Assembly: GCA_038248345.1 (NCBI GenBank)
Contig: JBBRXO010000002.1
Location: 6,506-70,505, forward strand
Direction of reading: 5' to 3'
Length of the DNA stretch: 64,000 nucleotides
Source: Armatimonadota bacterium
GTDB lineage: Bacteria; Armatimonadota; Hebobacteria; CAIYQO01
Below, piece by piece: positions 23,845 to 49,885 of this stretch. Below the pieces are notes generated by a model. It saw only the letters and a program-made list of their open reading frames with translations, searched no databases and was not told the origin of the DNA. Position 1 is the stretch's first letter; each line of letters opens with the position of its first letter. The position numbers and the translations under genes were made by a program.

Positions 23845-23990
23845 ACACCACGCGCTAAAGCACGTGGCTATAAGATCATGCATCCTGAAGGGCGCTGGAC
23901 ATTCGATTCCGAAAAGTCCGCGAAGGCGAACGAACGGCGCGTAGCGCCCTGCAGCCGGGATTTCAATCCCAGCGGAAAGAGGTTTTGCAT
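23845..23990 (-). repeat. Modular hairpin repeat family 2, copy a (reverse orientation)
   Basis: Reverse complement aligns to 31940..32070 (gggattgaaatcccgg, gtccgccttcgcggac modules). Confidence 0.6.
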
Positions 23991-24203
23991 TTACCTCAAA
24001 TGTGGTATGGCAGGAATATCGTTTTTAGCGATAATCCGTCCTCCCTGGCCTGACCATGAACGACCAGGCGAACAGGAGGGACGCTAAAAAATCTATACTT
24101 GGGGGAGGTATGGACAGTATCTCATATTGCTGATATTCTATCCTTATTATGTGGACGAGATATCTCTATATAATGTTATTGTTATATTTCTCTATGGGGT
24201 GAA

Positions 24204-24325
24204 AATCTGATGTCGCAGAAACCCTTAGCCCAGCCGTTCACGAATATGCGCCAGGCTATCGTATTGAACACTCGAAAACCAGCCTTGAAACTTGGGACTT
24301 AAAACTGTCTTGCAGGAGAAAAGCC
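24204..24325 (+). promoter_or_regulatory. Conserved upstream leader element (aatctgatgtcgcRgaaWccctt ... ttgaacact.aaaacc ... CTTGRAA heptamer array) immediately 5' of paaK
   Basis: Aligns with 31362..31515 and the minus strand of 33877..34010. Confidence 0.5.
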
Positions 24326-25645
24326 ATGTCAAACACCGGCCATAGTTCAACCATTTACAACCCTCTATATGAATGCATGGAACGCGAGGAGATGCGGGCG
24401 CTGCAACTGCGCCGCATGAAGGACGTGGTCTCGCGCGTCTACAATCATATCCCGGCCTACCGCCAGAAATGCGAGGAGCTGGGCGTCACTCCGATGCACA
24501 TGCAGACGCTGGCCGATATCGCTCACTTTCCCTTCACCATCAAGACAGACTTCCGCGATAATTACCCCTACGGCATGTTCAGTGTGCCCATTGAGGAAGT
24601 AATCCGCATTCACATGTCCAGTGGCACCACCGGCAAACCCACAGTGGTAGGCTATACCAGGAACGACATCGACCTGTGGTCACAGGTGATCGCGCGTTCC
24701 CTCGGATGCGCAGGCGTCACCCGCAAAGACATCGTGCAAGTATGCTACGGCTACGGGCTTTTTACCGGTGGCCTGGGCATACATTACGGGGCGGAGTTGT
24801 ACGGCGCCACCGTTATCCCGGTTTCGGGTGGTAACACTGCCCGCCAGGTGATGTTGATGGAGGATTTCGCCTCCACCGTCATCGCCTCCACTCCCAGCTA
24901 TGCGCTGTATCTGGCCGAGGTCGCCGCCGAAGCGGGGGTACTCGACAAGCTGAAACTACGCATCGGCATCTTCGGCGCCGAGCCGTGGTCAGAGGGGATG
25001 CGCCGGGAGCTGGAGAGCAAACTGAAGCTGAAGGCGCTGGATATTTACGGCATGTGCGAGCTGATAGGCCCGGGAGTGAGCAATGAATGCGAACACCAGC
25101 AGGGACTGCACATCTTCGAGGATCACTTCTACCCGGAGATCATCAACCCGGATACCGGTGAAGTACTCCCCGAAGGGAGCATCGGTGAGCTGGTGGTGAC
25201 CACCATGACCAAAGAGGCGGTGCCCATCATCCGCTACCGCACGCGCGATATCACCTCGCTCAACTACGAGAAATGCTCCTGTGGCCGCACCATGGTGCGT
25301 ATGGATCGCGTCACCGGGCGCAGCGATGATATGCTCATCATTCGCGGCGTCAACGTCTTCCCGTCGCAGATTGAGGATGTCTTAACAACCATCGAAGGAA
25401 CCGCACCGCACTACCAGCTACATGTGCGTCGCGAAGGCAACCTGGATGAGATGGAGCTATGGGTAGAGGTAACCGAGGCGGTGCTCAACGACGAAATCCG
25501 CTCGCTGGAAACCCTCAGCCGTCGTATCGGCAACGCGCTACAAAGCGTCCTCAACGTCTCCTGCCGCATAAAACTGGTAGAGCCAAAGTCAATCCAGCGC
25601 AGCGAAGGCAAAGCGAAACACGTTATTGACCATCGCGTGCTGTAA
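24326..25645 (+). CDS. paaK: Phenylacetate-CoA ligase family (aryl-acetate CoA ligase)
   Basis: N-terminal [22 protein letters not shown] and [16 protein letters not shown]-binding motif typical of PaaK. Confidence 0.75.
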
Positions 25646-25743
25646 ATCATGTTTGAAGGTTCGGAGACATGACCACTTGAAATATACGGTAACAACCAGG
25701 GTAACAGCCATCGATAACCACCTCGTATGCGGGGTGGCATAAA

Positions 25744-26328
25744 GTGAGTCAGTTACTCTTCCCTTGCGCAGTTATCATCTTTTTTGGCATCACCTTTTTT
25801 CTGCGTTGGCGTCGAAAACAAATAGAAGATGCTATGCGACGGGAAGATTATGCCAAATGCCAGCGTATTCTGGCGCGTGATCCACGCAACGCAGCGGCCT
25901 ACGCTATGCTGGGGGAGTTACTGGAACGGGACGGCAAACCTGCAGAGGCGTTGAAGGCCTACGAGGCGTCGTTGGCTAACGACCCCAAACAAATAAATAT
26001 GAATTACCGTGTGGAGTGCCTGCAGGATGAGCAGGCATTGCGGGAAAGTGGGCAAATACGGTGCCCGCTTTGCCGCACCATTCAGGTAAAAAGCCCCGGC
26101 AGATGCTGGCAATGCGGCACTGTGTTGCACATGCGCGGTGCCGTGCTGCAAAGCTTGGGGTATCGCGGTATTATTATATTCGCTCTGCTGCTTATTTGCC
26201 TGGTTTCAGCATACGTTTTTGCTGCTCTGCATAAACCTGATCTGGCTTATGGAGCAATAGGCGGCTTTCTCTTCTGCATATTGGGGTTGATCATCAACCA
26301 TAGATTTGGACGACGTAAAAACAATTAG
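25744..26328 (+). CDS. Membrane protein with TPR-like segment and CxxC...CxxC zinc ribbon, two C-terminal TM helices; function unknown
   Basis: Translation features only. Confidence 0.3.
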   Translation: MSQLLFPCAVIIFFGITFFLRWRRKQIEDAMRREDYAKCQRILARDPRNAAAYAMLGELLERDGKPAEALKAYEASLANDPKQINMNYRVECLQDEQALRESGQIRCPLCRTIQVKSPGRCWQCGTVLHMRGAVLQSLGYRGIIIFALLLICLVSAYVFAALHKPDLAYGAIGGFLFCILGLIINHRFGRRKNN

Positions 26329-26338
26329 GAGGCTAGTT

Positions 26339-27004
26339 ATGCGCTACTTGTATATACTTTTGCTTTTCACCTGTGGAATAATCGTCGATGCTATACCCAC
26401 CCAACTTGGCCCCACCGGCGCGGTAACCCTGCCGGGGGCAGAGTGTCTCACCGGCTTTGTGACGGCGGCAGATATCATCGATAATACTAACCAACGCGGG
26501 CGTTTATTGCGCGTCAATTATGGCACAGGTGATGCCGAGGTCGGCCTGCTCTATGGCGCAGATGACGGCAGCACTAGCGGTGTGAATGGCAAACTACGCC
26601 TCACCCCGCACAACGCCGAATTCCCGGCTGCCGTTGGGATTGCCTACCGTGAATACCCCTATTTCAATGAACGCGTCATCTATGCGGCGGTCGAGCATCA
26701 GTTCATCTCCGATGTCAAAGCCACCGTCGGCGTCCAACACGCCCAGATTCATGCCATAACTGGAAATGTCACCGGAACCCGCGGCTACCTCGCCGTGACC
26801 GTGCGAATGCCACGTAACGAAGAAGTCTGCGGAGAAATCCAGACCTTTGGCGATTCACTCTATGAAAGTAGGGCCATCGCCTCAGTGCGCTACACCAAAC
26901 ATTATCGCCTTTATGACTATTCCATCGGCACCACCAACGCCAACGGAATCCTCGGTGGCGACCGCCAGAACCTCTTCGCCGGGATGAGCGTGGCGTGGCG
27001 CTAG
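26339..27004 (+). CDS. Secreted hypothetical protein (signal peptide; beta-rich, possibly a small outer-membrane barrel)
   Basis: MRYLYILLLFTCGIIVDA signal peptide; alternating hydrophobic pattern; weak. Confidence 0.3.
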   Translation: MRYLYILLLFTCGIIVDAIPTQLGPTGAVTLPGAECLTGFVTAADIIDNTNQRGRLLRVNYGTGDAEVGLLYGADDGSTSGVNGKLRLTPHNAEFPAAVGIAYREYPYFNERVIYAAVEHQFISDVKATVGVQHAQIHAITGNVTGTRGYLAVTVRMPRNEEVCGEIQTFGDSLYESRAIASVRYTKHYRLYDYSIGTTNANGILGGDRQNLFAGMSVAWR

Positions 27005-27052
27005 CGCTTTTCTCTACTTGCCCTTTCCCTCCCCGCATGGGTACAATGAAAC

Positions 27053-28105
27053 ATGCTTATCGATGCCAATGGATTGTGTTTGCGGGAGCAGATTGAAGCG
27101 CGGGAGGATCTTATGCTGGCGCCGGAAGCTGCGCGCAGCATCTACTCGCGTGGGCGGCAACGCCCTGAGCTACCCTGTCCTTTTCGCACCGACTTCCAAC
27201 GTGACCGTGACCGGATATTGCATAGCAAATCATTTCGTCGCCTGGCGGGGAAGACGCAGGTCTTCGTCTCCCCGCGCAATGACCACGACCGCACCCGCCT
27301 GACACACAGCTTGGAGGTATGCCAGGTGGCGCGCACGGTAGCGCGGGTATTGCGACTGAACGAAGATTTAACCGAGGCAATAGCGCTGGGACATGATCTG
27401 GGACACAGCGCCTTCGGTCATGCGGGCGAGACGGCGTTGAATTTAATTTATCAGGAGTATGACCCGGACGCGCACTTCCACCATGCCGAGCAGAGCCTGC
27501 GCATGGTAGACCTGCTGGAGCGTGACGGGCGCGGGCTGAACCTTACCTGGGAAGTACGCAACGGCATTGCCCATCACAGCAAAGGTGAAAAAGACTGGCC
27601 ACAAAAGAGCAGCTGGCGTGCGGCAACACTAGAGGGGCAGCTGGTCGCACTGGCAGATCGTATCGCCTACAGCAGCCACGATATCGACGACGCCATGCGT
27701 GCCGGGCTGCTCACCCTCGATCAATTCCCCGCTTTCATCGTGAATAGCCTGGGCACCACCCACTCCGCCCGCCTCACCGCGATGATCGGCGATATCATCA
27801 ATGCCAGCCGTGACCTCTTCTTCATCCGCATGACGCCGGAGATGACGGAGATCACCAACGAATTGAAGAACTTCATGTATCTGAATCTCTACCTGTCCCG
27901 CAGCATGGCCCCCCGCGTGCGCCGTAGCGTGGATGAGACCATCACTGGCCTCTTCCGCCATTACATGGATCACCCCACCGAGGCAGACATCTCCCCCGAT
28001 AACGACACCAGAGCCCGTGCCCGCCTGGTCTGCGACTTTATCGCCGGGATGACCGATGACTATGCCCGCGACGCCTGGCGCGGGGTGAAAAGGAAAACAC
28101 GGTGA
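27053..28105 (+). CDS. dgt: dGTP triphosphohydrolase-like HD-domain phosphohydrolase
   Basis: FQRDRDRILHSKSFRRL, HDLGHSAFGH HD motifs. Confidence 0.75.
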   Translation: MLIDANGLCLREQIEAREDLMLAPEAARSIYSRGRQRPELPCPFRTDFQRDRDRILHSKSFRRLAGKTQVFVSPRNDHDRTRLTHSLEVCQVARTVARVLRLNEDLTEAIALGHDLGHSAFGHAGETALNLIYQEYDPDAHFHHAEQSLRMVDLLERDGRGLNLTWEVRNGIAHHSKGEKDWPQKSSWRAATLEGQLVALADRIAYSSHDIDDAMRAGLLTLDQFPAFIVNSLGTTHSARLTAMIGDIINASRDLFFIRMTPEMTEITNELKNFMYLNLYLSRSMAPRVRRSVDETITGLFRHYMDHPTEADISPDNDTRARARLVCDFIAGMTDDYARDAWRGVKRKTR

Positions 28106-28758
28106 GTTTACCAACAATAAAATCCCCTCTCATCCTCACCGGCGCTTATGGCAGCGGGAAGACGGAGTGTGCGCTGGCGCTCTCGATTACACTGGCGCGT
28201 GATGAAGCGGTGACATTGATCGATATGGATTTCGTCACCCCCTATTTCCGTGCGCAGGATCTGCGGGCTGAGTTGGGCGCGGAGGGCGTTACGGTAATTT
28301 CGTCGGATCTGCGCACCGCTGCCATTGATTCTCCCAGCATCCCCCCGGAGGCGGCGGAACATATCCTGCATCCGCGCGGGCACACGGTGATCGACCTGGG
28401 CGGTGACCCGACGGGCGCGGTGGTGCTGGGGCAATACGCGCCCTACCTGCACAACTATGATATGTGGGCGGTGGTGAACTTCAGCCGCCCCACCACCCCT
28501 ACCCCGGCCATAGCCTCAGTACTGCTGCAGGAGATTATGTCGCAAACCCGCATGAAAATCACCGGCATCGTCAGCAACACCCACCTTGGCCAATTCACCA
28601 CCGCTGAAGATGTGCTGGAAGGGCTGGCGGGTGCCCAAATTCTGGCCAAACTCCTCCACATACCGGTGAAACTATTATGCCTGCCACCGCATATTACGGT
28701 AGAAACTGACTTGCCCACACTACCTATTACACCGCGATTACTAAGGCCGTGGGAATAG
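28102..28758 (+). CDS. Small P-loop NTPase of unknown function (Walker A GAYGSGKTE, hhhhD Walker B LIDMD)
   Basis: 4-nt overlap with the dgt stop, so probably co-translated. Confidence 0.4.
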   Translation: MSLPTIKSPLILTGAYGSGKTECALALSITLARDEAVTLIDMDFVTPYFRAQDLRAELGAEGVTVISSDLRTAAIDSPSIPPEAAEHILHPRGHTVIDLGGDPTGAVVLGQYAPYLHNYDMWAVVNFSRPTTPTPAIASVLLQEIMSQTRMKITGIVSNTHLGQFTTAEDVLEGLAGAQILAKLLHIPVKLLCLPPHITVETDLPTLPITPRLLRPWE

Positions 28759-29068
28759 TCTTAACCCGGATTTTCTTGATTATTAGGATTTTCCTGATAA
28801 TTTACTGCTTGGGGGAGTATCTCATCGACCCAACGGTCCAGTTATCAGGTAAATCCTTAAAATCCTACAAATCTGGGTTCTGACAAAATCCTACCCACCA
28901 CTAGTGTCTCCCACGCCTAGCGCGCACATTAGTAGCGTATCAAAAGAATAAAATGGTTTGCAAAGCTTGACTCGTGCATCCGCTACGTGCTAAGCTAATA
29001 CTGGTTTGGGCGATTTAGAGATCGTCAAAACCATCGTGTTGAGGTATTTTTCTCAACACAATTAGGAG

Positions 29069-29827: not shown

Positions 29828-29856
29828 TTCCAAATTCCAAATTCCAAGTTCCAAGG
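29828..29856 (+). repeat. Tandem heptamer array (TTCCAAR x4) immediately after the NlpC/P60 stop
   Basis: ttccaaattccaaattccaagttccaagg read directly from the sequence. Confidence 0.7.
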
Positions 29857-29893
29857 GGCGGCGCGTATGCGCCGCCCTTTTTTTATTATTTGA
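29855..29893 (+). terminator. Rho-independent terminator (GGGGCGGCGCG-tat-GCGCCGCCC followed by T8)
   Basis: Perfect GC-rich hairpin followed by a T-run. Confidence 0.65.
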
Positions 29894-29905
29894 ATCAGCA
29901 CATGG

Positions 29906-29927
29906 CTTGGAACTTGGAACTTGGAAC
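29906..29927 (+). repeat. Inverted heptamer array (CTTGGAA x3) mirroring the 29828..29856 array, just upstream of radA
   Basis: cttggaacttggaacttggaacc is the reverse complement of the upstream array. Confidence 0.7.
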
Positions 29928-29948
29928 CAAATATGCTACCATACCTCC

Positions 29949-31322: not shown

Positions 31323-31361
31323 GGAATTAGTGGTAAAGTACGCTTTATTACTTGGCAATAA

Positions 31362-31515
31362 TAATCTGATGTCGCGGAATCCCTTCTCCCCGCCCTGAAG
31401 GACGATCGGCGTAGCCCACTAGCCCTGTCGTTTACGGCTGGGCGATAGGCTGGCGGGTTTGAACACTATAAAACCTGACTTGGAACTTGAAACTATTTTA
31501 ACAAGGAGGAAACCC
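31362..31515 (+). promoter_or_regulatory. Conserved upstream leader element, copy 5' of the osmC-like gene (tgatgtcgcggaatccctt ... ccctgtcgtttacggctgggcga ... ttgaacactataaaacc ... cttggaacttgaaactatttt ... AGGAGG)
   Basis: High similarity to the fhs-upstream element (minus strand) and the paaK-upstream element. Confidence 0.5.
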
Positions 31516-31905: not shown

Positions 31906-31939
31906 AGGGGTAGATCATAAGAGAGAGGTGTTTGCAATA

Positions 31940-32130
31940 CTCTTTCCCGCTGGGATTGAAATCCCGGCTGCAGGGCGCTGCGCGCCGGTCGTCCGCCTTC
32001 GCGGACTTTTCTGAATCGAATGATAGCGCGCTTTAGCGTACTTGCCGTTGTTAGCCACCTCTTTCAGGGGGTGGCGCCGGGAATCGCAATCCCGCTCTAA
32101 TGGGCGGGACGCCACTGCTACGGGTAGCGG
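31940..32130 (+). repeat. Modular hairpin repeat family 2, copy b (longest copy: gggattgaaatcccgg, gtccgccttcgcggac, atgatagcgcgctttagcgtacttgccgttgttagccacctctttcagggggtggc modules)
   Basis: Modules recur at 23845, 41465, 44868 and 49700/49818. Confidence 0.65.
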
Positions 32131-32163
32131 AACCATGACCATTTGCATTGACGTGGTCTATCC

Positions 32164-33876: not shown

Positions 33877-34010
33877 ATTATTACCTCCAAAAATAGTTCA
33901 GGTTCCAATTTCCAAGTTTCGAGGTTGGTTTTGAGTGTTCAACTCGCCCAGCCGTGAACGATAGGGCTTGTGGGCTACACTTATTATCCGCCTATGCGGA
34001 CTTTTTTGCT
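33877..34010 (-). promoter_or_regulatory. Conserved upstream leader element, copy 5' of fhs (minus strand: ...gtccgcataggcggat...gtagcccacaagccctatcgttcacggctgggcgag ttgaacactcaaaacc ... cttggaaattggaacctgaactattttt GGAGG)
   Basis: Aligns module by module with the osmC-upstream copy. Confidence 0.5.
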
Positions 34011-34224
34011 ACTACGATTACCTGTGTCTATTTGTTCGCCACCATGCACGTCGGTTCCTGTTTTTTAAATGTGGGCTTCGCGCTACCCGGTATTCTATTA
34101 TCTTTTACCTATTTTTCAGAAATATCGTTGAAAATAGTGGCAAATATTGACCCAAAATACCCGCCATTTTATCGACAAAACCGTTATAATATAAGCAATC
34201 AGTAACCAGAAAGTATTTGTTGTC

Positions 34225-37284: not shown

Positions 37285-37309
37285 CATGGGGAAAGTGAAA
37301 AGGCTTTAA

Positions 37310-40628: not shown

Positions 40629-40651
40629 AATCGGCGTATCACATTGATCCA

Positions 40652-41110
40652 TCATTGCGTGAGCGGCAGATACTCATCCAGCGTGATAACCATATGCTGC
40701 GTCCCTATCAGCTTGCGTGCGAGCGCCATATCTGCTGTCAATAATGGTACACTCTTCTGCTCCGCCAGCGCCACATAAACGGCGTCGTAGGCAGAGATAT
40801 TCAACTCGCAGGCCAGCTGCAGCGCGCGTTTGCTCAATTGTTTGAGTGGGGTGGTTATCAGTCCTAAAGCTGATAATTCATCAACTCTGCTCGCTCCAGT
40901 TGCGGTATCAATTTCCCCACGCTGAGCTTTTTTCCAGAGAATGTTAGCACATTCAATATAGAGGAGATCTGGGACAAAAAGAACAAATCCGTCACTCTCA
41001 AACATGTTTTCGAGAAGTTCGCGAAGTTCATGACTTCCGCGCTCTGGCGCTACATACTTGATAAGTACGCTGGCATCATATACACAACGCGGTGGCAACT
41101 CAGTTCTCAT
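40652..41110 (-). CDS. vapC: PIN-domain toxin (VapC family)
   Basis: 152-aa PIN-like protein with conserved acidic residues; overlaps the upstream small RHH gene by 4 nt. Confidence 0.6.
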   Translation of the reverse strand: MRTELPPRCVYDASVLIKYVAPERGSHELRELLENMFESDGFVLFVPDLLYIECANILWKKAQRGEIDTATGASRVDELSALGLITTPLKQLSKRALQLACELNISAYDAVYVALAEQKSVPLLTADMALARKLIGTQHMVITLDEYLPLTQ

Positions 41111-41355
41111 CGTTCCCGATCCTCACGCAACAAATCAGTTGTAGTTTTGCCATCAATTGAAGGCTTAAACAGGTAGTCGCTCTCTCTAAGACGTGTTAAT
41201 GATGCCAGACGCTCACTTTTTATCCGCTTCTTCTCCAATTCGACTTCCACGAGTTTGATTACTTCAGTACCGACAGATTTTTTTTCTGCTTTCGCCATCG
41301 CTTTCAACGCCTGATACATCTCATCAGGAAAGTCTCGTACATATAATGTCGCCAT
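41107..41355 (-). CDS. vapB: Antitoxin, ribbon-helix-helix (CopG/Arc-like)
   Basis: MATLYVRDFPDEMYQALKAMAKAEKKSVGTEVIKLVE; AAGGAG RBS; start chosen at MATLY rather than the track's 41406. Confidence 0.5.
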   Translation of the reverse strand: MATLYVRDFPDEMYQALKAMAKAEKKSVGTEVIKLVEVELEKKRIKSERLASLTRLRESDYLFKPSIDGKTTTDLLREDRER

Positions 41356-41464
41356 AGTAGATTCTCCTTTGACAGTATTATACCCATAATAATTGCAAAT
41401 GTGCAATCGTATTTGTGTGATAATGCAAGCAATAGTAAAGAGTTACGCTGGGACTAAAGTACCG

Positions 41465-41595
41465 GCTGCGTGGCATTAATGCCGGTAGTCCGCCTTCGCG
41501 GACTTTACATATATGGTAATAGCGCGCTTCAGCGTGCTTGCAGTTGTTAGCCACCTCGTTTACGGGGCGGGACGCCCATGCCACGACTATCTCTT
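41465..41595 (+). repeat. Modular hairpin repeat family 2, copy c
   Basis: gtccgccttcgcggac plus atagcgcgcttcagcgtgcttgcagttgttagccacctcgtttacggggcgggacgcc. Confidence 0.6.
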
Positions 41596-43380
41596 CGTCT
41601 GTGCCCACACCTCTTCTGCCTTTGTCACCAGCTCGTCGATCATCTGCAGGCCGTCGTCCCAGAAGGTGGGGTCGTTGATGTCGATGCCTGCCTTTGCCAT
41701 GATGTCTGCCGGGCGCGCGGAGCCGCCGGCGCGGAGGATATCCTGGTAATGCGGGACGAAGGAGGCGCCCTCTTTTTTATAGCGTGCGTAAAGCGCCATC
41801 ACCATCAGCTGGCCGAAGGCATAGGCGTAGACGTAGAAGGGCGTGTGGATGAAGTGCGGGATATACATCCAGAAGCAGGCGTGTCCTTCGCCTAACTCTA
41901 CCGAGTCGCCGAACATCTCTTGCAGGTTCGTCTGCCAGATTTCATTTACCTGTGCGGGGGTCAGCTCTCCCTTTGCACGGCGTTCGGTGTGTACCCCTTG
42001 CTCGAAGCGGTACATGGCGGTCTGGCGGAAGACAGTGGCGAAGACGTCCTCGATTTTGCCGGTGAGCAGTGCCAACTCCGCCATCGGCTCATGCTCTTCG
42101 GCTAAAAGTTCGTTGAAGGTGAGCATCTCGCCGAAGACGCTGGCCGTCTCCGCTGCTGCCAGCGAGGGGTAGTACTGCAGGAACTTCTGCCCGCCCGCGT
42201 AGAGGTCGTGGATGCCGTGGCCCAGCTCATGCGCCAGCGTCATCACGTCGCGCTTTTTGCCGAGGAAGTTCATCAGCACGTAGGGGTGCCAGTCCGGTGC
42301 CAGCCCGGCGCAGAAGGCTCCGCTGCGCTTGCCGTGACGCGGTTCGGCATCCACCCACTTCTCATTGATAAAGCGATCGACCATCTCACCCATCTCGGGG
42401 GCAAAGGCAGTGTAGGAATCGCGCACAATCTTCACCGAGTCATCCCAGCTTATGGTGGCGGTATCGCTGAGAATAGGCGCGTAGCGGTCATAATGGTAGA
42501 GCTTATCCAACCCCATGATCTCGCGCTTCAGCTTATAGTACCGGGCCACAGTATCATAGTGTTCTACCACCGAGTTGATCATAGTGTGTACGGTATCGGT
42601 ATCCACTTCGTCAGAGAGGTGACGTGATTCCTCCGCGTGATTGAAGTGTGTCAGGCGGTCGTTCACCGATTTGTCATAGGCCAGCACGTTGGTAACGTAG
42701 GTGAAGAACTTCTCATTTTTGCTCAACGCGGCGGATATCCCCTCAGCGGCGGCTTTGCGCACGGCGCGGTCGGGATCGTAGGATTTATTCAGGATCTCGG
42801 ACTCAGATAGTTCGACGGTCTCACCATTCAGCGTCATGGTGAAGGTCATGGCGGCGATGGTCTCATCGAAGAGGCGCGAGAAGGCCTGCCCGCTGGTGAC
42901 GGATTTCTCCATCAGGATTCGCTCTTCCGCCTCGCTCAGACGGTGCGGACGTGCAGCGCGCTCATGCTCCAGGTAGTGCCGATAGGCAGCGGTACCCGTA
43001 TCGGAGAGCAATTCGGCAAACTTCTCCTCGGATAACTCCACTAGCTCCAACTCAAAGAATAGCAACTGCTGCGCTGCTGCTACCGACCGCTCCTGCATCC
43101 GCTGCATCAGCGCCCCATGCGCCGGGTTACTCGTATCGCCACTGAAAAGCAACTCGGAATAAGCCGCCGGAAAGGCCAACGTCCGCTGAATCCCCTCATA
43201 TTCACCCAGGGCTACCGCGAACTCCGCCGGCGACAACTGCCCCACCCGCCCCGCGCAGGAGACAGCAAATGACGCCACGCGCACATCCACCTCCGCTAGC
43301 GCACTATCAATCTTCGGGTCCGTCACCCCCGCAAACAAATCCGTCAAATCCCAGGTAACTGGTGTATTACTCATCATCAT
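41587..43380 (-). CDS. pepF: Oligoendopeptidase F (M3 family metallopeptidase)
   Basis: HELGHGIHD zinc-binding motif, about 597 aa. Confidence 0.8.
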   Translation of the reverse strand: MMMSNTPVTWDLTDLFAGVTDPKIDSALAEVDVRVASFAVSCAGRVGQLSPAEFAVALGEYEGIQRTLAFPAAYSELLFSGDTSNPAHGALMQRMQERSVAAAQQLLFFELELVELSEEKFAELLSDTGTAAYRHYLEHERAARPHRLSEAEERILMEKSVTSGQAFSRLFDETIAAMTFTMTLNGETVELSESEILNKSYDPDRAVRKAAAEGISAALSKNEKFFTYVTNVLAYDKSVNDRLTHFNHAEESRHLSDEVDTDTVHTMINSVVEHYDTVARYYKLKREIMGLDKLYHYDRYAPILSDTATISWDDSVKIVRDSYTAFAPEMGEMVDRFINEKWVDAEPRHGKRSGAFCAGLAPDWHPYVLMNFLGKKRDVMTLAHELGHGIHDLYAGGQKFLQYYPSLAAAETASVFGEMLTFNELLAEEHEPMAELALLTGKIEDVFATVFRQTAMYRFEQGVHTERRAKGELTPAQVNEIWQTNLQEMFGDSVELGEGHACFWMYIPHFIHTPFYVYAYAFGQLMVMALYARYKKEGASFVPHYQDILRAGGSARPADIMAKAGIDINDPTFWDDGLQMIDELVTKAEEVWAQTKR

Positions 43381-43466
43381 CCGCCTTTATTGGTTTACTG
43401 TTGGGTTTATAATTGGCTGTTGATGTGGGGAACTCCTGCTGATTTTATATTTTGGAGATAAATGGG

Positions 43467-43575
43467 TAGGGGCACATGGCATGTGCCCTCAATACGGGGT
43501 ATGAGATACATGACCAATTGAAGGTATGGTTACGATGTGGGCACAAGCCTTGTGCCCCTACAATCGGGTTGTGGG
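43467..43575 (+). repeat. Double-hairpin intergenic repeat, copy C
   Basis: About 90% identical to 16677..16785. Confidence 0.7.
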
Positions 43576-44679
43576 CGAAGACCACTTTAGTACATCTCTC
43601 CCTGTTGTAGCACATACCTCTTCTGCTGGCGTCAGTACCTCCCCGCGTCCCTGCACGCGCAACGCTATCCCACGCAGCCAGGGGGTGAACATGGGGGTGC
43701 ATTTGAGTATCTCTGTCTTGATCGCCTGCCGCAACGGCTGGGTGGCGGTGGCGTAGCGGGGGGCGGCGAACTCCAGTGCGGGCTCTAGCGCGGCGGCCAG
43801 TGCCTGCGCGCTGCGAAAGGCGTAGCTGAAGCCTTCGGCGGTGCTGGGGCTAATCCATCCTGCCGCCTCGCCGACCAGCAACACGCGGCCCGCGCCGGTG
43901 CAGAGCTGGCTGCCGTGGCGGGGACGCTCCAGCAGCGCGCCTTCACGCCAGCGCAGTTTGCCAGGAGAGATGCCATATTCCGCCAGTTTTACCAACAGCG
44001 CGGCGAAGTGTGCGTGGGGATTATCATGCGGGGTGAAGGCCGCTCCTATAGCCAGCAGGCCGCCTTTGGGGATTGCCCAGCCATAATAGTTGGTGACAGC
44101 GCGATCGAAGATGGCGATGTGGTCGGCAGGCAGCGCATCCATCTCATACCACCCCTGCAATGCAATGTACTTCTGCGGGGCGGTGGCCGTCGGGAAACAG
44201 CGCCACCGCACCTGCGAGTTAGCGCCATCGGCGCCGATGAGCAACCGCGTCCGCTCGCTATAGTTGTGCCCACCGGCGGTGAAATGAACCGTCACCCCAT
44301 CGGCGTCAGTCTCGATGTTACCTGTTACCACACCGCAACGGATATCCACCGTTGCCGGCGCCAGCGAGAGCAGCCAGCGGTCGAGCAACTCGCGGTGGCA
44401 GTTGATGTACGAACGCGGGTGCGTGCCGGTGATGCCGTTGTCCGCGTCGATCAAGTACACCTGCTGCGGTTGTTCACGTGTCATGATAGCGGACGGCGCC
44501 GCCAGCCCCATATCCGCCAGCGCCCGCTGCGCATTGGCGCTCAGCAACCCGCCACAGCACTTGCCCGGCTTCTCCGGCACCGGCGGTGTATCCAGCGTCC
44601 GCCGCTCCAGCAGCAACACCCGGTATTTCTCCCCCAACAAACGGGCCAGCGTCGCCCCGATAATCGCTATATCGTACAC
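43558..44679 (-). CDS. FAD-dependent oxidoreductase (geranylgeranyl-reductase / FAD-monooxygenase-like)
   Basis: N-terminal dinucleotide-binding segment MYDIAIIGA...; GTG start with an AAGGAGG RBS. Confidence 0.45.
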   Translation of the reverse strand: MYDIAIIGATLARLLGEKYRVLLLERRTLDTPPVPEKPGKCCGGLLSANAQRALADMGLAAPSAIMTREQPQQVYLIDADNGITGTHPRSYINCHRELLDRWLLSLAPATVDIRCGVVTGNIETDADGVTVHFTAGGHNYSERTRLLIGADGANSQVRWRCFPTATAPQKYIALQGWYEMDALPADHIAIFDRAVTNYYGWAIPKGGLLAIGAAFTPHDNPHAHFAALLVKLAEYGISPGKLRWREGALLERPRHGSQLCTGAGRVLLVGEAAGWISPSTAEGFSYAFRSAQALAAALEPALEFAAPRYATATQPLRQAIKTEILKCTPMFTPWLRGIALRVQGRGEVLTPAEEVCATTGRDVLKWSSPTTRL

Positions 44680-44731
44680 ATCTGCCTCCTTCGAGAAAAT
44701 ATTTTGCGGACACTTTGCCCCACTAGTCTAC

Positions 44732-44841
44732 CTAACCCCCAGCCCCTTCTCTGCGCGGGAAGGGGTGTCGATTCAATGATTATCTATTGAAGAACGATCA
44801 TTCTCCCCCTTCCCGCGCCGGGAAGGGGGTCGGGGGGTTAG
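44732..44841. repeat. Large GC-rich palindrome in the divergent promoter region (arms ctaacccccagccccttctctgcgcgggaagggg / ccccttcccgcgccgggaagggggtcggggggttag around an inner ttcaatgat...attgaa palindrome)
   Basis: Read directly from the sequence; each arm is also a local hairpin. Confidence 0.6.
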
Positions 44842-44867
44842 GTCGACCAAGGCTTTTCATCCCCAAA

Positions 44868-44932
44868 CTATGATAGCGCGCTTCAGCGTGCTTGCCGTTG
44901 TTAGCCACCTCCTTCAGGGGGTGGCTTTCCCT
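44868..44932 (+). repeat. Modular hairpin repeat family 2, copy d (tgatagcgcgcttcagcgtgcttgccgttgttagccacctccttcagggggtggc)
   Basis: Near-identical to the core module of 31940..32130. Confidence 0.65.
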
Positions 44933-45040
44933 ATCCCTCATAATCCTACCGCTTCCCTCTCCCCCGTTCCACCCACTGAGGCCACTATTTCGCGCACTTG
45001 GGTGCTTGGTGGCTGGGGTGGTTTGGCATATACTATTGGC

Positions 45041-45775
45041 ATGTACGATATTCTGCTGGTGGAAGATAACGCGCGGTTGCGCCCGGCGCTGGTGAGTGGA
45101 TTGAACGCTACCGGCAAAGTGCGGTTGGCGCACGCCTGCGCGAGCGGGGAAGAGGCGCTGGCGTGGTGTCGCGAGCACACGGCGCAGGCGATATTGATGG
45201 ACGTGCAACTGGCCGGGGAGATGAACGGCATCGCGGCGGCGGTGGCAATACGACGCGAATATGCGCGTATGCCGGTAGTCTTCTACAGCATCCAGGATGA
45301 CGACGCCTACTACCGCGCCTTCCGCCACGCGGGCATCCTCAGCCATTACGCCTACGTGCGCAAGTCGAACTACTTGCTACCGCAGTTGATCGTGCCCTTG
45401 CTGCAGGATGCCATCTCCGGGCGCAGTTTCATCGACCCGGATATCGAGGCGCGTGTGCAGGAAGTACGCCACAAAGACGCGCGCGACCCGATGGCGCTGC
45501 TGGAGCCGAACGAGCAAGAGGTGGCGCGCATGATCGCACGGGGGATGACCAACGAGCAAATCGCCGCGCAACTGGGCTTCCGCGATAAGCGCACCATCAG
45601 CCGCACCGACGGGCAGATATATGCCAGTTGGGGGCTGGACGCCAGCAACACTGATGAAAAAATAGCCCGCACCCGCGCAGTGATTATCATGCAGTCAGGC
45701 CGGTTGCTGGCCTGGGATACCGACGGCACCCCACGCGTGGAGGCAGAGAATGGCGAATGGGTGGTGTGGGAGTAG
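45041..45775 (+). CDS. Two-component response regulator, NarL/LuxR family (receiver plus LuxR-type HTH)
   Basis: MYDILLVEDNARLR..., phospho-acceptor Asp in ILMDVQL, C-terminal ...EQEVARMIARGMTNEQIAAQLGFRDKRTI... Confidence 0.7.
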   Translation: MYDILLVEDNARLRPALVSGLNATGKVRLAHACASGEEALAWCREHTAQAILMDVQLAGEMNGIAAAVAIRREYARMPVVFYSIQDDDAYYRAFRHAGILSHYAYVRKSNYLLPQLIVPLLQDAISGRSFIDPDIEARVQEVRHKDARDPMALLEPNEQEVARMIARGMTNEQIAAQLGFRDKRTISRTDGQIYASWGLDASNTDEKIARTRAVIIMQSGRLLAWDTDGTPRVEAENGEWVVWE

Positions 45776-45790
45776 GTTATGCCTTCACCT

Positions 45791-46576
45791 TCACCGCAAT
45801 TGCTGCGCTGCAGTGAAGCTCTGTCGGATAGTGCCGATGATGGCAATTACCGCGGTAAACATGCTGGCGGCGGTGATCATATAGACCACCATGATCTGGT
45901 AATGCACCGCCTGCAACGGATTCTGCCCGGCGATTATCTGCCCGGTCATCATGCCGGGGAGTGAGACAATCCCCACCACCAGCATACTATTGACGCTGGG
46001 CATGATGGCTGTGCGCAACGCGTCGCGGCGCAGCGGATGTACTGCCTGCGCGGGAGTGGCACCCAGCGCCAGCGCCGTCTCCACCTCATTGCGGCGCGTG
46101 CGCAGGTCGCCGACAAAGCGGCTCACCGCTACCGCCCCGGCGTTCATGGCATTGCCGGTGATCATCCCCGCCAGCGGCAGCACGTACTGCGCCTTCAGCC
46201 ATGGTTGATACTGGTGCAGCACCAACACCAGCACAAAAAGCAGCACCGAGACGCTGCCGCTGACAATGGCGACGGTGAAAACCAGCGCCTTGCCGGGCAA
46301 CGGCTCTTTGATACGCCCCTGCGCGGTATGCACCGCCACCCCCAGCATGATGCCCAACGCCAGCAACACCCAGTACCACTCGCCCAGCCCGGCACGATTG
46401 ATGACGAAGAGTAACACGTAGCCGGTGGCGGAAAGCTGCAGGAAGGAACGGATGATCCCCCAGAACAACTCCTTCTCCAGCCCCAGTTGCAGCCGCCAGG
46501 AGACGGCCATACTGGCGAAAACGAGCGTACCGGCAATGAGCAAATCCAGGTAACTGATGGGGATAGTCGGTTCCAT
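45791..46576 (-). CDS. ABC-type exporter permease, FetB/YbbM (UPF0014) family
   Basis: 261 aa with about 7 TM helices, LALGATP motif; immediately downstream of its ABC ATPase partner. Confidence 0.5.
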   Translation of the reverse strand: MEPTIPISYLDLLIAGTLVFASMAVSWRLQLGLEKELFWGIIRSFLQLSATGYVLLFVINRAGLGEWYWVLLALGIMLGVAVHTAQGRIKEPLPGKALVFTVAIVSGSVSVLLFVLVLVLHQYQPWLKAQYVLPLAGMITGNAMNAGAVAVSRFVGDLRTRRNEVETALALGATPAQAVHPLRRDALRTAIMPSVNSMLVVGIVSLPGMMTGQIIAGQNPLQAVHYQIMVVYMITAASMFTAVIAIIGTIRQSFTAAQQLR

Positions 46577-47305
46577 CTATGCCACCTCCAGCCGACGTTG
46601 TGTCACCACTGCCAGCGCGCTCTCCGCATCGGGGTAAAGCTCTGCCGTGCCCCCGCTCAGCAGCAACGTGGGGCAGGCCAGTCGCAGCAACACCTCACGC
46701 GTGTGTGTCACCATCACCAGCGTCAGCCCACTCTCCGCATTACGGCGCAACAACGCGGCCAGCAACGCAGCGGTGGACTCCTCGTCCAGCGCCGAGGTCG
46801 GCTCGTCGAGGAGCAACACCTCCGGCGACAGCGCCAGTGCCCGCGCCAGCGCCACCCGCTGCTGCTGCCCGCCGGATAATTGCCGCGCACGGCGTTCCAG
46901 CAACTCATCTGGCAGGCCAACCTCAACCAGCAGCGTCGCCGCCTCCTCCGTTGACAACGTCCGCCCCGCCAGCTTCAGTGGATAGGCGAGGTTGGCGAGC
47001 ACGGTATCATCGAAGAGCGTCGGCTGCTGAAATAACATGGCCACCCGGCGGCGCAGCGCCACCGGCTCCAGTTGTGGCAGGGGTACGCCGTCAAGGAGGA
47101 TCTCCCCGCTCGCCGGGTCATCCAGGCGGTTCAGTAGCCGCAGCAGACTGCTCTTACCACTGCCCGAAGGCCCGATAATCGCCAGCCTGCCGCCCGCTGG
47201 CGCCACGAGCGAGACGTCGCGCAGGATCTGCAACACCTGCATCTCCTCCCCCACCAGCGCCGGACGCGCCACTGTCACCCCCCGCAAAGTTATCTTATCA
47301 GCCAT
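46577..47305 (-). CDS. ABC transporter ATP-binding protein (FetA/YbbL-like)
   Basis: Walker [27 protein letters not shown] signature, Walker B LLLDEPTSALD; start chosen at MADKITLRGV. Confidence 0.7.
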   Translation of the reverse strand: MADKITLRGVTVARPALVGEEMQVLQILRDVSLVAPAGGRLAIIGPSGSGKSSLLRLLNRLDDPASGEILLDGVPLPQLEPVALRRRVAMLFQQPTLFDDTVLANLAYPLKLAGRTLSTEEAATLLVEVGLPDELLERRARQLSGGQQQRVALARALALSPEVLLLDEPTSALDEESTAALLAALLRRNAESGLTLVMVTHTREVLLRLACPTLLLSGGTAELYPDAESALAVVTQRRLEVA

Positions 47306-47408
47306 GCTGTTTATTTTCGGGTATGCGGTGGGGTTCTCCTGCAAATGGGGAGACGTATCTGGTATCCACCGCTTCGCGGTGGATACCATGTATTTATATA
47401 TTATTCTC

Positions 47409-47476
47409 TCTTCGTGTCTTCGTGCCTTCGTGGTTCACAATAACTAGGAACTAGGAACTAGAAACTACGAACTCCC
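47409..47476 (+). repeat. Two adjacent tandem arrays upstream of the sensor kinase: (T/C)CTTCGTG x3 then AACTNNN x5
   Basis: tcttcgtgtcttcgtgccttcgtg ... aactaggaactaggaactagaaactacgaactccc; the cttcgtgtcttcgtggttca core recurs at 491..520. Confidence 0.65.
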
Positions 47477-47557
47477 CCGCACTCAAGTGCTTGGTAACTC
47501 CCGCTGATTCTCCTATACTATGGGCATGTACACTAACATCGGGCAGGTAGGTGGATA

Positions 47558-49639
47558 ATGGACGTGCTGGGTTGGGGGTTGCTGGCTATCTCGCTCTTTA
47601 TCGTCTGCCTGCTCGTCTGGCTGGCGGTCACCGTGTTCCTCACCGCAGAGCGGCGTGATCGGTATGTCTGGCTTATCTGTCTGGCCATGCTGGTGGGGGC
47701 GGCTTTCTTCGGCGTGCATGCCGTGTTGATGAGCAATGGGCATAACTCGGGCACCGCGCTGGCGCTGGCCCAGTGGCCGCTGGTATGGGTGGTGGGGGTG
47801 CTATTGCCCTGCGCCTGGTATATGGCGGTGCTCTGGCACACCGGCTTCTGGGAAAGTCGCCGTGCTATGCGACACCGGGCGCTGCACACCATCGCCTATT
47901 ATGCGCTAGTGGTTTTTCTCTTCACCTGTGCCATACTGGTGTTCTCTGATCCCACTATCCGTGCTCATCCCTGGGCATTGTTATCCCCTTTCAACCCGGC
48001 ATACATCCTCGCCGGGCCATATTTTCACCGGGTGCCGGTGCTGGCGCTCATCTTCATCACCGTCATGGTGCTCTGCATTGCGCTGGCGCTCGATGTGCTC
48101 TATCATCCGGCACCCTCGGCACGGCTGATGGGCGACACCGCCCGCATGCGCGCACGGCCATATCTGGTGGGCATCACTCTGGCGCCCTTTGCCGTCAGTC
48201 TGCTGGTGTGCGGTACGTTGCTGCACTTCATGCCGGAGATACTCTACATTCACTCACGTACCCTCGCACCGGCGACCGCCCTGCAGATGAGTTGGATTGA
48301 CCTCGCTATTGTCACGCTGATTGCAGCCACCGTCTTCCTTATGGGGCAGGCCATCGTCTCCTACGAGATCTTCACCGGCAATGCGCTGTTACGTCAGGGG
48401 TTGCGCCGGCGCTGGTACAGCGCGGTGACGCTGGCCGCTGGCTTCAGCGCACTGCTCGGCGCACTGGTGGTTTTTGATTTGCCCATCGTCTTCGGCGCGC
48501 TCATCATCTGCGCGGTGGTGGGGGCGCTCTACGCCGTCAACACCTGGCGCAGCTTCGCCGAACACGAGGCCGCTATCGCCAATATCCGCCTTTTTACCAC
48601 CGGGAACCTCGCCTACGACGCCCCCGCGGAGCATGAGCTGTACTTCCAGCAACTCTGCGAGAAGTTCCTCGGCGTGCGCAGCGCCGGCCTGCTACCGCTG
48701 GGGTCGTATGCGCTGCTCCTGCGCCCGCTGGCCTACCCGACGGATAGCCAGTTGCCGGATTCCGTGACCGCCCTCGCTGCGCAGTTCACTGACCCACAGA
48801 CGCTCTGCCTGCCGATTGCGACGCCTCCATTTTCCTGGGCCGTGCCGCTCTGGCACGAGCGCGGTCTGAATGGACTGCTGCTGCTGGGCGCGAAGCGCGA
48901 CGACGGCCTCTACACGCAGGAGGAGATGGAGGTGGCGCGCGCCATCGGCGAGCAATTGCTGGAACGGCTGGCGGGCAATGAATTGACGCGGCGGTTGGTG
49001 CTGCTGCAACGCACGCGCATGATGGAGGAACAGGTGGTAGATCAGCGCACGCGGCGCACGCTGCATGATGAAGTGCTACCCAGTGTGCAGACGCTGATGA
49101 TCGCCTTGAGCGCCGGGCAACTGGACACCCCGGCGCTGCTGACACAACTTACGGAGGTGCATCAGCAGATCGCCGATATCCTGCACGCCATGCCCACCGC
49201 CAGCAACAACACCCTGCAGGAGAAAGGCATCGTCGGCGCGCTGCAGCAGTTCATCGAGGTCGACCTGCGCGACAGTTTCGCGAACGTCAGCTGGGAGCTA
49301 TGCCCCGGCTACGGTGAGCGGCTGGCCGCCCTCCCTCCGCTCACCACCGAGGTGCTCTTCGGCGCCGCGCGCGAAGCCGTGCGCAACGCCGCCCGCCACG
49401 CCGCCGGTGGCGATACCTCTCGCCCCATTCAGCTGCACCTGCGTGTAACGGATACCGACGGCCTGCTACGCCTCATCATCGAAGACGACGGCATCGGCCA
49501 CGCCGCCCCCCAGGTAACCACCAGCACCGGCCACGGCGTCATGCTGCACAGCACGCTGCTGGCGGTAATTGGAGGTAGCTGGGAGATGACCAGTACGGCA
49601 GGAACGGGTACGCGGGTTTCATTGCGAGTGAGTGGGTAA
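47558..49639 (+). CDS. Sensor histidine kinase (polytopic N-terminal membrane domain; HisKA_3-type dimerisation, HATPase_c)
   Basis: H-box LHDEVLPSVQTL, C-terminal ATPase motifs; partner of the LuxR-type regulator. Confidence 0.65.
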   Translation: MDVLGWGLLAISLFIVCLLVWLAVTVFLTAERRDRYVWLICLAMLVGAAFFGVHAVLMSNGHNSGTALALAQWPLVWVVGVLLPCAWYMAVLWHTGFWESRRAMRHRALHTIAYYALVVFLFTCAILVFSDPTIRAHPWALLSPFNPAYILAGPYFHRVPVLALIFITVMVLCIALALDVLYHPAPSARLMGDTARMRARPYLVGITLAPFAVSLLVCGTLLHFMPEILYIHSRTLAPATALQMSWIDLAIVTLIAATVFLMGQAIVSYEIFTGNALLRQGLRRRWYSAVTLAAGFSALLGALVVFDLPIVFGALIICAVVGALYAVNTWRSFAEHEAAIANIRLFTTGNLAYDAPAEHELYFQQLCEKFLGVRSAGLLPLGSYALLLRPLAYPTDSQLPDSVTALAAQFTDPQTLCLPIATPPFSWAVPLWHERGLNGLLLLGAKRDDGLYTQEEMEVARAIGEQLLERLAGNELTRRLVLLQRTRMMEEQVVDQRTRRTLHDEVLPSVQTLMIALSAGQLDTPALLTQLTEVHQQIADILHAMPTASNNTLQEKGIVGALQQFIEVDLRDSFANVSWELCPGYGERLAALPPLTTEVLFGAAREAVRNAARHAAGGDTSRPIQLHLRVTDTDGLLRLIIEDDGIGHAAPQVTTSTGHGVMLHSTLLAVIGGSWEMTSTAGTGTRVSLRVSG

Positions 49640-49699
49640 GCCTCTCAGGAGTATCGTTTTTAGCGCCAGTCACTAAAAACGATACTCCGGGGTTTCCGA

Positions 49700-49762
49700 T
49701 CCTTTACCACGCGCTAAAGCACATGGCTATAAGATCAAGCACCCTGAAGGGCGCTGCTAATC
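49700..49762 (-). repeat. Modular hairpin repeat family 2, copy e (inverted relative to copy f)
   Basis: Reverse complement cagcgcccttcagggtgcttgatcttatagccatgtgctttagcgcgtggt aligns with 49818..49885. Confidence 0.6.
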
Positions 49763-49817
49763 CAATAATTACTTCCTTTATCTGCCCATGCCACGAAAAG
49801 CCATAACGTTTATTCTC

Positions 49818-49885
49818 AATTAGATGATAGAGCGCTTTAGCGTGCTTGATCTTATAGCCACGTCCTTTAGGGCGTGGAGGTGTCA
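49818..49885 (+). repeat. Modular hairpin repeat family 2, copy f
   Basis: gatagagcgctttagcgtgcttgatcttatagccacgtcctttagggcgtgga. Confidence 0.6.

Follow-up and report, generated by a model that had tools for sequence, protein, structure and literature searches.

Six Copies of a Modular Hairpin Repeat in an Armatimonadota Contig

The window analyzed in this study, a stretch of 64,000 nucleotides (64 kb) from an Armatimonadota bacterium (GenBank assembly GCA_038248345.1, contig JBBRXO010000002.1, positions 6,506 to 70,505), contains six copies of a modular hairpin repeat, labeled A to F from left to right, which probably belong to the repetitive extragenic palindromic (REP) class of elements. 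All six copies are intergenic, and the housekeeping genes that flank them are unrelated to one another and lie in all orientations. A degenerate 22-mer, ATAGCGCGCTTYAGCGTRCTTG, matched the plus strand at 32023, 41519, 44873 and 49827 with up to three mismatches, as compared with no match expected from 100 shuffled sequences, and the minus-strand copies A (23848-23898) and E (49707-49757) carry a structurally equivalent variant of this central motif. Segments shared between copies showed pairwise identities of 92-97% (94.7% over 76 nt for A/B, 94.6% over 56 nt for B/D, and 94.1% over 51 nt for A/E) in a repeat search and BLAST, which revealed no seventh copy in the window. An earlier note, made by reading the letters of this DNA, had proposed a family of at least six copies at or beside these positions, and both the copies and the modules were recovered as it described them; copy A now reaches leftward to 23806 and copy B rightward to 32124, since both hold an extra hairpin module, M6 (CCCCGTTCTCATGGGCGGGACGCCCATGCTACGGG), and copy C is partly degenerate.

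Alignment of the full copies from the window and a related metagenome-assembled genome (MAG) gave a composite of about 175-185 nt, in which the modules are ordered as H1 (CTGGGATTGAAATCCCGG), H1b, H2 (GTCCGCCTTCGCGGAC followed by TTTT), a linker, the core hairpin, a second hairpin, sometimes H5, and the long hairpin M6. H1b occurs as a compensatory pair of variants, GGCGC...GCGCC or GGCAT...ATGCC. The core hairpin, ATAG-CGCGC-TTYA-GCGTR-CTTG, has 7 bp and a 4-nt loop, and the second hairpin has 8 bp and a 4-nt loop and is of two types, TTAG-CCACCTCC-TTCA-GGGGGTGG (4a) or ATAG-CCACGTSC-TTTA-GSGCGTGG (4b). Copies D, E and F have nothing but the two central hairpins, and this pair is therefore the invariant unit: hairpins in tandem, both with a 5' (A/T)TAG foot, a stem of 7-8 bp and a TTCA or TTTA loop.

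Copies A to C are mosaics of these modules. The most complete composite, copy B (31950-32124, plus strand), lies between convergent genes for an OsmC-like protein and formate-tetrahydrofolate ligase (FTHFS), and comprises H1 (31950-31967), H1b (31973-31988), a terminator-like H2 (GTCCGCCTTCGCGGACTTTT, 31991-32009), the core (32023-32044), hairpin 4a (TTAG-CCACCTCT-TTCA-GGGGGTGG, 32051-32075), H5 (32077-32094) and M6 (32090-32124). The near-complete copy A (23806-23990, minus strand), with a hypothetical open reading frame (ORF) on one side and a phenylacetate-CoA-ligase-like gene on the other, carries M6 (23806-23840), hairpin 4b (ATAG-CCACGTGC-TTTA-GCGCGTGG, 23848-23871), a variant core (CCAGCGCCCTTCAGGATGCATG, 23877-23898), H2 (23913-23931), H1b (23934-23949) and H1 (23955-23972). 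As copy A joins a B-type left half to an E-type right half, the modules have been reshuffled. Copy C (41448-41585, plus strand) has a degenerate H1, an H1b variant (GTGGCATTAATGCCGG, 41470-41485), H2 (41488-41506), the core (41519-41540), a degenerate hairpin 4a (41547-41571) and only half of M6. A FitA/PIN toxin-antitoxin pair lies on one side of it and an M3 peptidase gene on the other, and it is antisense to both of its flanking genes, those for the FitA-like antitoxin and the M3 peptidase. The PIN-domain toxin and the FitA-like ribbon-helix-helix antitoxin occupy 40652-41406, directly to the left of this copy.

The remaining copies are minimal. Copy D (44873-44925, plus strand) is a two-hairpin unit formed by the core (44873-44894) and hairpin 4a (44901-44925), about 115 nt upstream of the probable start of a response-regulator gene (45041). 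Copies E and F lie between a histidine kinase gene and a metallophosphoesterase gene as the left and right arms of a doublet: E (49707-49757, minus strand) consists of hairpin 4b (49707-49730) and a variant core (GCAGCGCCCTTCAGGGTGCTTG, 49736-49757), and F (49827-49877, plus strand) of a core (ATAGAGCGCTTTAGCGTGCTTG, 49827-49848) and hairpin 4b (49854-49877). The two arms, 49707-49755 and 49829-49877, are 86% complementary and 73 nt apart, and bear out the palindrome of facing copies that had been suspected at 49700-49885. When folded as single-stranded DNA (ssDNA), the pair reached -40.7 kcal/mol, as compared with -20.6 ± 3.2 kcal/mol for shuffled sequences (z = -6.3). The doublet is tail-to-tail, with the TAG feet facing inward, and folds as one long hairpin on one strand, like a REPIN (a hairpin-forming REP doublet). 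Similar tail-to-tail doublets were found outside the window, at loci L029, L108 and L115 and at Desulfobacterales loci.

The repeats showed no sign of being genes or pieces of genes. The ORFs predicted over them (31915-32148, 41378-41608 and 44798-45346 on the minus strand, 41513-41749 on the plus strand) had no Pfam match at E ≤ 1, and have in common only a short repeat-encoded stretch, with no shared frame beyond the core, so that the suspicion that such ORFs are spurious holds. A coding reading was rejected because of the lack of Pfam matches and because conservation outside the 22-mer follows the hairpins and not the codons. The elements create spurious ORFs and false gene starts: an ATG at 44870 lies inside copy D, whereas the response-regulator domain begins only at residue 61 of that frame, and the likely start of this protein is MYDILLVEDN at 45041. 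ARAGORN found no tRNA. Comparison with Rfam, which had been recommended in the earlier note, gave no family at the gathering threshold in the window or in 18 cross-phylum loci, and at E ≤ 10 copy B gave only sub-threshold matches, the best being isrK with 19.3 bits against a threshold of 50. The ARAGORN and Rfam negatives ruled out tRNA or rRNA fragments, so that neither of the origins regarded beforehand as fatal to the repeat family, a protein-coding family or rRNA/tRNA, was encountered.

Covariation and Strand Specificity of the Hairpins

The structure was assessed with 17 distinct two-hairpin units and 15 base pairs. In these units, 97.3% of the cells were paired, and 5 of the 15 pairs showed changes on both sides (for example, G-C/C-G at pair 8/15 and C-G/G-C at pair 37/48). 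The covariation score was reached by none of 500 shuffles, and partners that had been slid along the alignment gave only 30-68% pairing. Two wobble pairs are retained, a G·T at pair 6/17 in all 17 units and a T·G at pair 38/47 in 15 of 17. Among 122 metagenome cores, positions 5/18, which the search pattern leaves free, were C-G in 98 cases, T-A in 22 and mismatched in two. With relaxed matching, the stems change by compensation, while the T at position 17 stays opposite G, T or C.

Wobbles on one strand become C·A mismatches on the complement, and therefore the ATAG...CTTG strand folds better. With DNA parameters, this strand outfolded its complement in 8 of 9 Armatimonadota-type copies and in 68 of the 84 others that differed; the stronger folding was seen with RNA parameters as well. 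Since the wobbles are kept on one strand and that strand folds better, the object under selection is one single strand and not the duplex. In the soil composites, C(UNCG)G tetraloops of the reverse strand were first taken as evidence for RNA; they are uninformative, because read on the forward strand they make d(C-GNA-G) mini-hairpins just as well.

Every copy in the window has ATAG or TTAG as its foot, unlike the GT[AG]G foot of the GTAG super-family of REPs. TAG was preceded by T in 55 of the 122 metagenome cores, by G in 26, by A in 25 and by C in 16, indicating that TAG is kept and the G is not. A generic scan of the window for TAG followed by a hairpin gave no enrichment (63, as compared with 66.8 in shuffles), and the foot alone is therefore not usable as a detector.

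Distribution of the Core Hairpin across Phyla

We found that the 22-nt core hairpin, ATAGYGCGCTTYAGCGTRCTTG, is present in multiple copies in MAGs of at least six phyla, Armatimonadota, Acidobacteriota, Chloroflexota, Desulfobacterota, Bacteroidota and Sumerlaeota. An exact scan with one genome per species gave 25 loci, eight of which belong to the Armatimonadota MAG JBBQQW01 and have modules as in the window; the others are in Desulfobacterales, Caldilineaceae, Blastocatellia, Bacteroidota and Sumerlaeota MAGs, often with several loci per genome. At least 120 metagenome contigs, mostly from soil, carry the 20-nt core, and no match was found in viral contigs. A literature search with the core 16-mers found no mention of them. 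Each lineage has its own hairpins around the core, nearly all of which have T-N-N-A loops closed by C-G, and many of which are TAG-footed.

Within the Armatimonadota, the distribution is uneven. The FTHFS encoded in the window is 100% identical to an NCBI protein, and its next-best matches, with identities of 74-79%, come in several cases from named Armatimonadota MAGs. In three relatives whose FTHFS is 79% identical, no copy was present in 54 kb, a patchy distribution that is typical of REP families and in line with a REP-type reading; the genes neighboring FTHFS are not conserved in these relatives. Locus L012 is 83% identical to window positions 22953-23839 and keeps M6 without the rest of copy A, and synteny stops there. 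A contig of an independent assembly (L150, Logan SRR19962012) matches window positions 60850-49827 at 99.96%, and turns unrelated exactly at the first base of core F, where it has a different core variant, ATAGGAGCGCCCTTTAGGGTGCTTG. The break reflects either a rearrangement of the strain at the repeat or a mis-join made through the repeat during assembly; elements of this kind can break or mis-join metagenome assemblies.

At one locus of a Desulfobacterales MAG (L015, 5880-6760), two tail-to-tail core doublets surround genes for an antitoxin and a MazF/PemK-like toxin in a cassette-like arrangement. Neither an integrase nor attC core sites were seen at this locus.

A Y1 Transposase Gene Adjoins the Core in Other Lineages

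The 120 metagenome contigs examined for neighboring genes had been selected by the 20-nt core alone from among the matches listed. In 13 of these 120 contigs, and in one Bacteroidota MAG, the core adjoins a gene for a Y1 transposase of about 145 amino acids. Y1 genes are rare as a background, and the 13 adjoining cases found within about 24 kb of sequence near the core are therefore not a product of chance; three more distant Y1 genes in the same contig set had no core nearby. The linked protein matched Pfam Y1_Tnp (1.1e-21) and the NCBIfam model transpos_IS200 of the IS200/IS605 family of insertion sequences (IS), with 71.8 bits against a cut-off of 55.

The layout of these loci is regular. 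In 12 of the 14 loci, the stop codon of the gene is followed after 5-35 nt by a reverse-complement core (after 15-17 nt in nine of them), and in 9 of 14 a core-like hairpin in forward orientation closely precedes the start codon, being either the forward core or a fully paired variant, NAG-CCCGC-TTTA-GCGGG-CTT. The outer modules are likewise mirror images of each other. The same layout occurs in one high-GC Acidobacteriota-type and one low-GC Bacteroidota lineage; it was seen in a low-GC contig and in the Bacteroidota MAG, whose gene is decaying. Frameshifted or degraded tnpA copies were also found at L099, L103 and L149, and the degraded fragment of L103, used as a protein query, gave a single match.

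The linked proteins share the motifs (T/D)H(V/I)H, WQ and YI(R/K/E)NQ(K/D)(E/K)HH, the last occurring for example as YIRNQKEHH, YIKNQDKHH or YIENQDKHH; the 145-aa protein of contig L114 has THVH, DWQTGYG and YIRNQKEHH. In the classification of Quentin et al. (2018, PMC6006769), Y---Q--HH is the signature of TnpAY1 subclass 1.2 (Table 1 of that paper), which is close to IS200, not IS-like, low in copy number and scored "REP: no", and which comes for the most part from Cyanobacteria and Bacteroidetes and as a rule lacks terminal IS200 structures. The linked gene, seen in the other lineages only, combines the features of this subclass, namely Y---Q--HH, WQ, HuH, a length near 148 aa and a low copy number. 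No tnpB was found beside it. In the literature searched, no later work on subclass 1.2 was found.

A search for homologues gave 1985 sequences at E ≤ 1e-5, and the family is abundant in Acidobacteriota; a profile-free search among 1.84 billion representatives gave 1267 clusters at E ≤ 1e-10, most of them with the subclass 1.2 signature. Almost every distinct homologue was seen on one contig only, and the L114 and L048 proteins, which are 80% identical, are both encoded after the same glyA-like gene. Because of this common neighbor and the single-contig homologues, the transposase gene appears to be of low copy number and vertically inherited, as far as contig data suggest. Many homologues (P0242, P0244, P0250, P0261, P0266 and others) are proteins of 270-320 aa with two tandem Y1 domains, each with its own HuH and Y..Q..HH motifs, and may represent the usual dimer in covalently linked form.

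Subclass-1.2-like tnpA genes were also found on megaplasmids of cultured Cytophagales, in Bernardetia (L151, NZ_CP147018.1, 478467-478934; motif YILNQPEHH) and in Persicobacter (L152, CP012861.1, about 286.9 kb; motif YIQNQKFHH). These genes too are flanked by inverted hairpins, TAG-footed or TGAA-looped and of other sequence, such as TTAG-CGATGGGT-GTTA-ACCCATCG, suggesting that flanking hairpins are general for subclass 1.2.

Other Repeats in the Window

Several further repeats were noted in the window. Three doublets of GGGCACA(A/T)GGC(A/T)TGTGCCC, inverted and about 70 nt apart (16676-16784, 19862-19960 and 43466-43572), have a (G/A/T)TAG foot on the outside, like head-to-head dimers of canonical GTAG-type REPs, and are probably the "first family" of the earlier note. 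A 46-nt inverted pair (31400-31445 and 33944-33989, 83% complementary) encloses the OsmC-like gene, copy B and FTHFS; it holds CTAGCCCTGTCGTTTACGGCTGGG, similar to the module CTAGACCAGCCGTTTTACGGCTGGG that forms the outer hairpin at the acidobacterial transposase loci, and is followed by an H2-like hairpin (33986-34004). Just upstream of copy D, a palindrome family with CCCCTTCCCGCGCCGGGAAGGGG and then GGTTAGGT (44736-44765 and 44806-44835) was found, which is also present in the related MAG (L019, 7496-7539) and in the Logan contig L150 (about 11180-11290). Two repeats adjoin copies of the family studied here, namely atcgtttttagcgataatccgtcctccctggcc at 24011-24069, which is 85% identical to a segment of the related MAG (L014, 5535-5593), and the related hairpin gtatcgtttttagcgccagtcactaaaaacgatac at 49650-49690, directly after the kinase gene. 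Farther away are a 37-nt inverted repeat (61228-61264 and 61369-61405, 95% complementary, with 104 nt between the arms) and a perfect 25-nt inverted match beginning with GTAGCCCGCGCC, whose arms (20419-20443 and 61444-61468) are 41 kb apart.

Discussion

We propose that the repeats are probably ssDNA hairpin elements of the REP, REPIN or bacterial interspersed mosaic element (BIME) type, recognized by a Y1/HUH transposase of the subclass 1.2 type. The structure of the units, their strand specificity and covariation, the conservation of the core across phyla, and the linkage of core and transposase in two other lineages are shown here and support this proposal. The elements are short imperfect palindromes that form stem-loops in the 20-40 bp range of REPs, and the closely spaced inverted units and mosaics by which BIMEs and REPINs are recognized are both present. 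The earlier note had likened the repeats to BIME/REP or to Correia-type mosaics. The former comparison is borne out by their intergenic position, mosaic build, occurrence in both orientations and inverted doublets; the latter is not supported, because no terminal inverted repeats (TIRs) with target duplication were seen.

The functional unit would consist of a 5' NTAG foot, a stem of 7-8 bp with one conserved non-Watson-Crick position, and a T-N-N-A tetraloop. When the forward strand becomes single-stranded, for example at a replication fork, it could form the footed hairpin, whose stem irregularity and TAG foot might be recognized by a subclass 1.2 HUH/Y1 enzyme that cleaves and rejoins close by, in trans. 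Units or tail-to-tail doublets might thereby be copied or moved to new intergenic sites, while the other modules would hitch-hike or represent separate families that cluster alongside, as in BIMEs. Secondary effects on the host are conceivable, such as termination of the OsmC-like gene by H2 of copy B. Biochemical precedents for such a mechanism are IS608 TnpA and the E. coli TnpA(REP) (PMC6006769).

Several observations weigh against this proposal. The 64-kb window holds no Y1 transposase gene, and none occurs in the roughly 55 kb of loci taken from the closest element-bearing MAG or in the 54 kb from the three other, element-less relatives; the link to this genome therefore rests on the identity of the 22-nt hairpin; we infer that such an enzyme exists, or once existed, in this genome and acts on these hairpins, and that the hairpins are mobile. 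A REP-associated tyrosine transposase (RAYT), which the earlier note had suggested looking for elsewhere, was found neither in the window nor in loci L001-L025 in its classical form, as searched with an approximate E. coli YafM query and an HUH...Y..NP pattern; the same core does flank a Y1 gene in other lineages, one of an IS200-like subclass whose proteins lack the Y---NP motif of RAYTs. The foot is NTAG rather than the canonical GT[AG]G. No pair of filled and empty sites with intact flanks was found; the sole orthologous site, L012, loses synteny at the element. The G·T pairs and the terminator-like H2 would fit a role as RNA just as well. Moreover, we know of no subclass 1.2 protein demonstrated to transpose.

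The RNA role deserves consideration in its own right, namely that the elements act mainly as 3'-UTR stabilizers, terminators or small RNAs and that the linkage to the transposase is incidental. The wobbles on one strand are G·U-compatible, the canonical stem and T-run of H2 in copy B come right after the OsmC-like gene and make a good terminator, and many REPs are regarded as transcribed (PMC3733652). However, only one of the copies scores as a terminator, no consistent promoter was found within or before the copies, and Rfam offers no family, whether at the gathering score or at E ≤ 10. Both neighboring genes run antisense to the repeat at copies A and C. Among 56 metagenome loci with callable flanks, there were 24 at which the better-folding strand ran antisense to the two flanking genes, as compared with only 8 at which it was in the sense direction of both. 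An RNA role also leaves unexplained the conserved foot and the fixed site beside the transposase gene. We therefore regard a mainly RNA-based explanation as unlikely, while noting that an RNA role and use as a transposase substrate are compatible and not exclusive. Somewhat less likely still is that the repeats are solo ends or deletion derivatives of an autonomous IS200/IS605 element, that is, a palindrome-associated transposable element, rather than REPs with a domesticated single-copy transposase. The assignment of the linked protein to IS200/IS605 by NCBIfam, the resemblance of the soil composites to a transposase locus minus its ORF, and the frameshifted or degraded tnpA copies of L099, L103 and L149 all favor that idea. 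The flanks of tnpA are inverted, however, unlike the direct-orientation ends of IS200/IS605; nearly all distinct homologues lie on one contig each with no adjacent tnpB; the shared glyA-like neighbor of L114 and L048 suggests vertical descent; and the Y---Q--HH signature is that of a subclass described as low-copy and not IS-like (PMC6006769).

It is very improbable that the repeats are double-stranded DNA sites for a host protein, such as a transcription factor, a nucleoid protein or a recombinase acting on attC, or miniature inverted-repeat transposable elements (MITEs) of the TIR type, such as Correia elements. Their palindromic nature and intergenic location would suit such sites, and the Desulfobacterales doublets that bracket a MazF-like toxin-antitoxin cassette look superficially integron-like. 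Nevertheless, strand-asymmetric G·T pairs together with compensatory stem changes are unexpected for duplex binding, and the neighbors are housekeeping genes with no relation to one another. The integron attC idea was dropped, as neither R''/R' cores nor an integrase were present. An alignment of eight full copies with their flanks showed, at the copy boundaries, none of the TIRs or duplicated flanks that would be expected of a MITE.

Our preferred reading, that the repeats are REP-type hairpins recognized by a subclass 1.2 transposase, leads to a broader possibility, for and against which the balance is about even: REPs with an NTAG foot, a T-N-N-A tetraloop and a conserved mismatched T may be an unrecognized pan-phylum class cognate to TnpAY1 subclass 1.2, an IS200-like and apparently domesticated transposase. 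On that view, the nearly unchanged 22-nt hairpin in six phyla would reflect either a very strong enzyme-substrate constraint or repeated horizontal transfer of REPtrons, which are Y1/HUH genes with inverted flanking repeats.

REPs and RAYTs are the best example of long-lived, vertically inherited bacterial "replicators", and are known mainly from Proteobacteria with genus-specific repeats. If our proposal is true, the uncharacterized subclass 1.2 gains a testable substrate, REP biology reaches poorly studied phyla such as Armatimonadota and Acidobacteriota, and an oligonucleotide and enzyme pair becomes available for the biochemistry of ssDNA recognition.

Comparison with Known Systems

The elements resemble the REPs, BIMEs and REPINs of E. 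coli (REP-yafM) and Pseudomonas in being imperfect palindromes of 20-30 nt with an irregular stem, in having a conserved 5' tetranucleotide foot that ends in TAG or AG, and in being intergenic and multi-copy, as singletons, inverted dimers 10-100 nt apart and mosaic clusters. As in REP systems, different families coexist in one genome. The arrangement of a Y1/HUH gene with inverted flanking repeats is that of REPtrons (PMC3733652), observed here in other lineages only. Unlike in classical REPs, the foot is NTAG (ATAG or TTAG in the window; in soil, T is more frequent than G and A, which are about equal, and C is the rarest), the tetraloops are T-N-N-A, and the linked protein has Y---Q--HH instead of Y---NP. 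In addition, classical REPs are species- or genus-specific, whereas the present core is nearly identical across six phyla.

IS200/IS605 elements such as IS608 and ISDra2 are similar in their ssDNA hairpins with an unpaired or mismatched T and in their HUH/Y1 enzyme of about 150 aa, and their enzymes are the closest in sequence to the linked protein, as judged by the NCBIfam IS200 model. IS200/IS605 elements carry their ends in direct orientation along one strand, and ends and gene spread together as many identical copies. In the present loci, by contrast, the flanks are inverted and the hairpins far outnumber the gene; no tnpB adjoins the gene, and the copy-number signal is low. TIRYTs and their TIRtrons, whose hosts include Acidobacteria (Di Nocera et al., 2013, PMC3733652), also place a Y1 gene within long, composite, partly self-complementary inverted repeats that in addition form moderately abundant families; TIRYT proteins are mainly of class 2.1 with a C-terminal helix-turn-helix, and TIRs share GGGGWSAS, neither of which was seen here.

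The linked protein is like TnpAY1 subclass 1.2 in its YI(K/R)NQ(K/D)(E/K)HH and WQ motifs, its length of about 145 aa and its low apparent copy number. Unlike the published members of the subclass, the linked genes have inverted hairpin flanks, and these hairpins are also dispersed in genomes. Taken together, the elements depart from strict REP/RAYT systems in two respects, as their foot is not GT[AG]G and the linked enzyme is not of the Y---NP type, but share their architecture, with the flanked transposase gene seen in other lineages. The feature in the window is itself an ordinary class of genome furniture; what appear to be new are the cross-phylum conservation of the recognition hairpin and its link to a transposase subclass that was thought to be without REPs.

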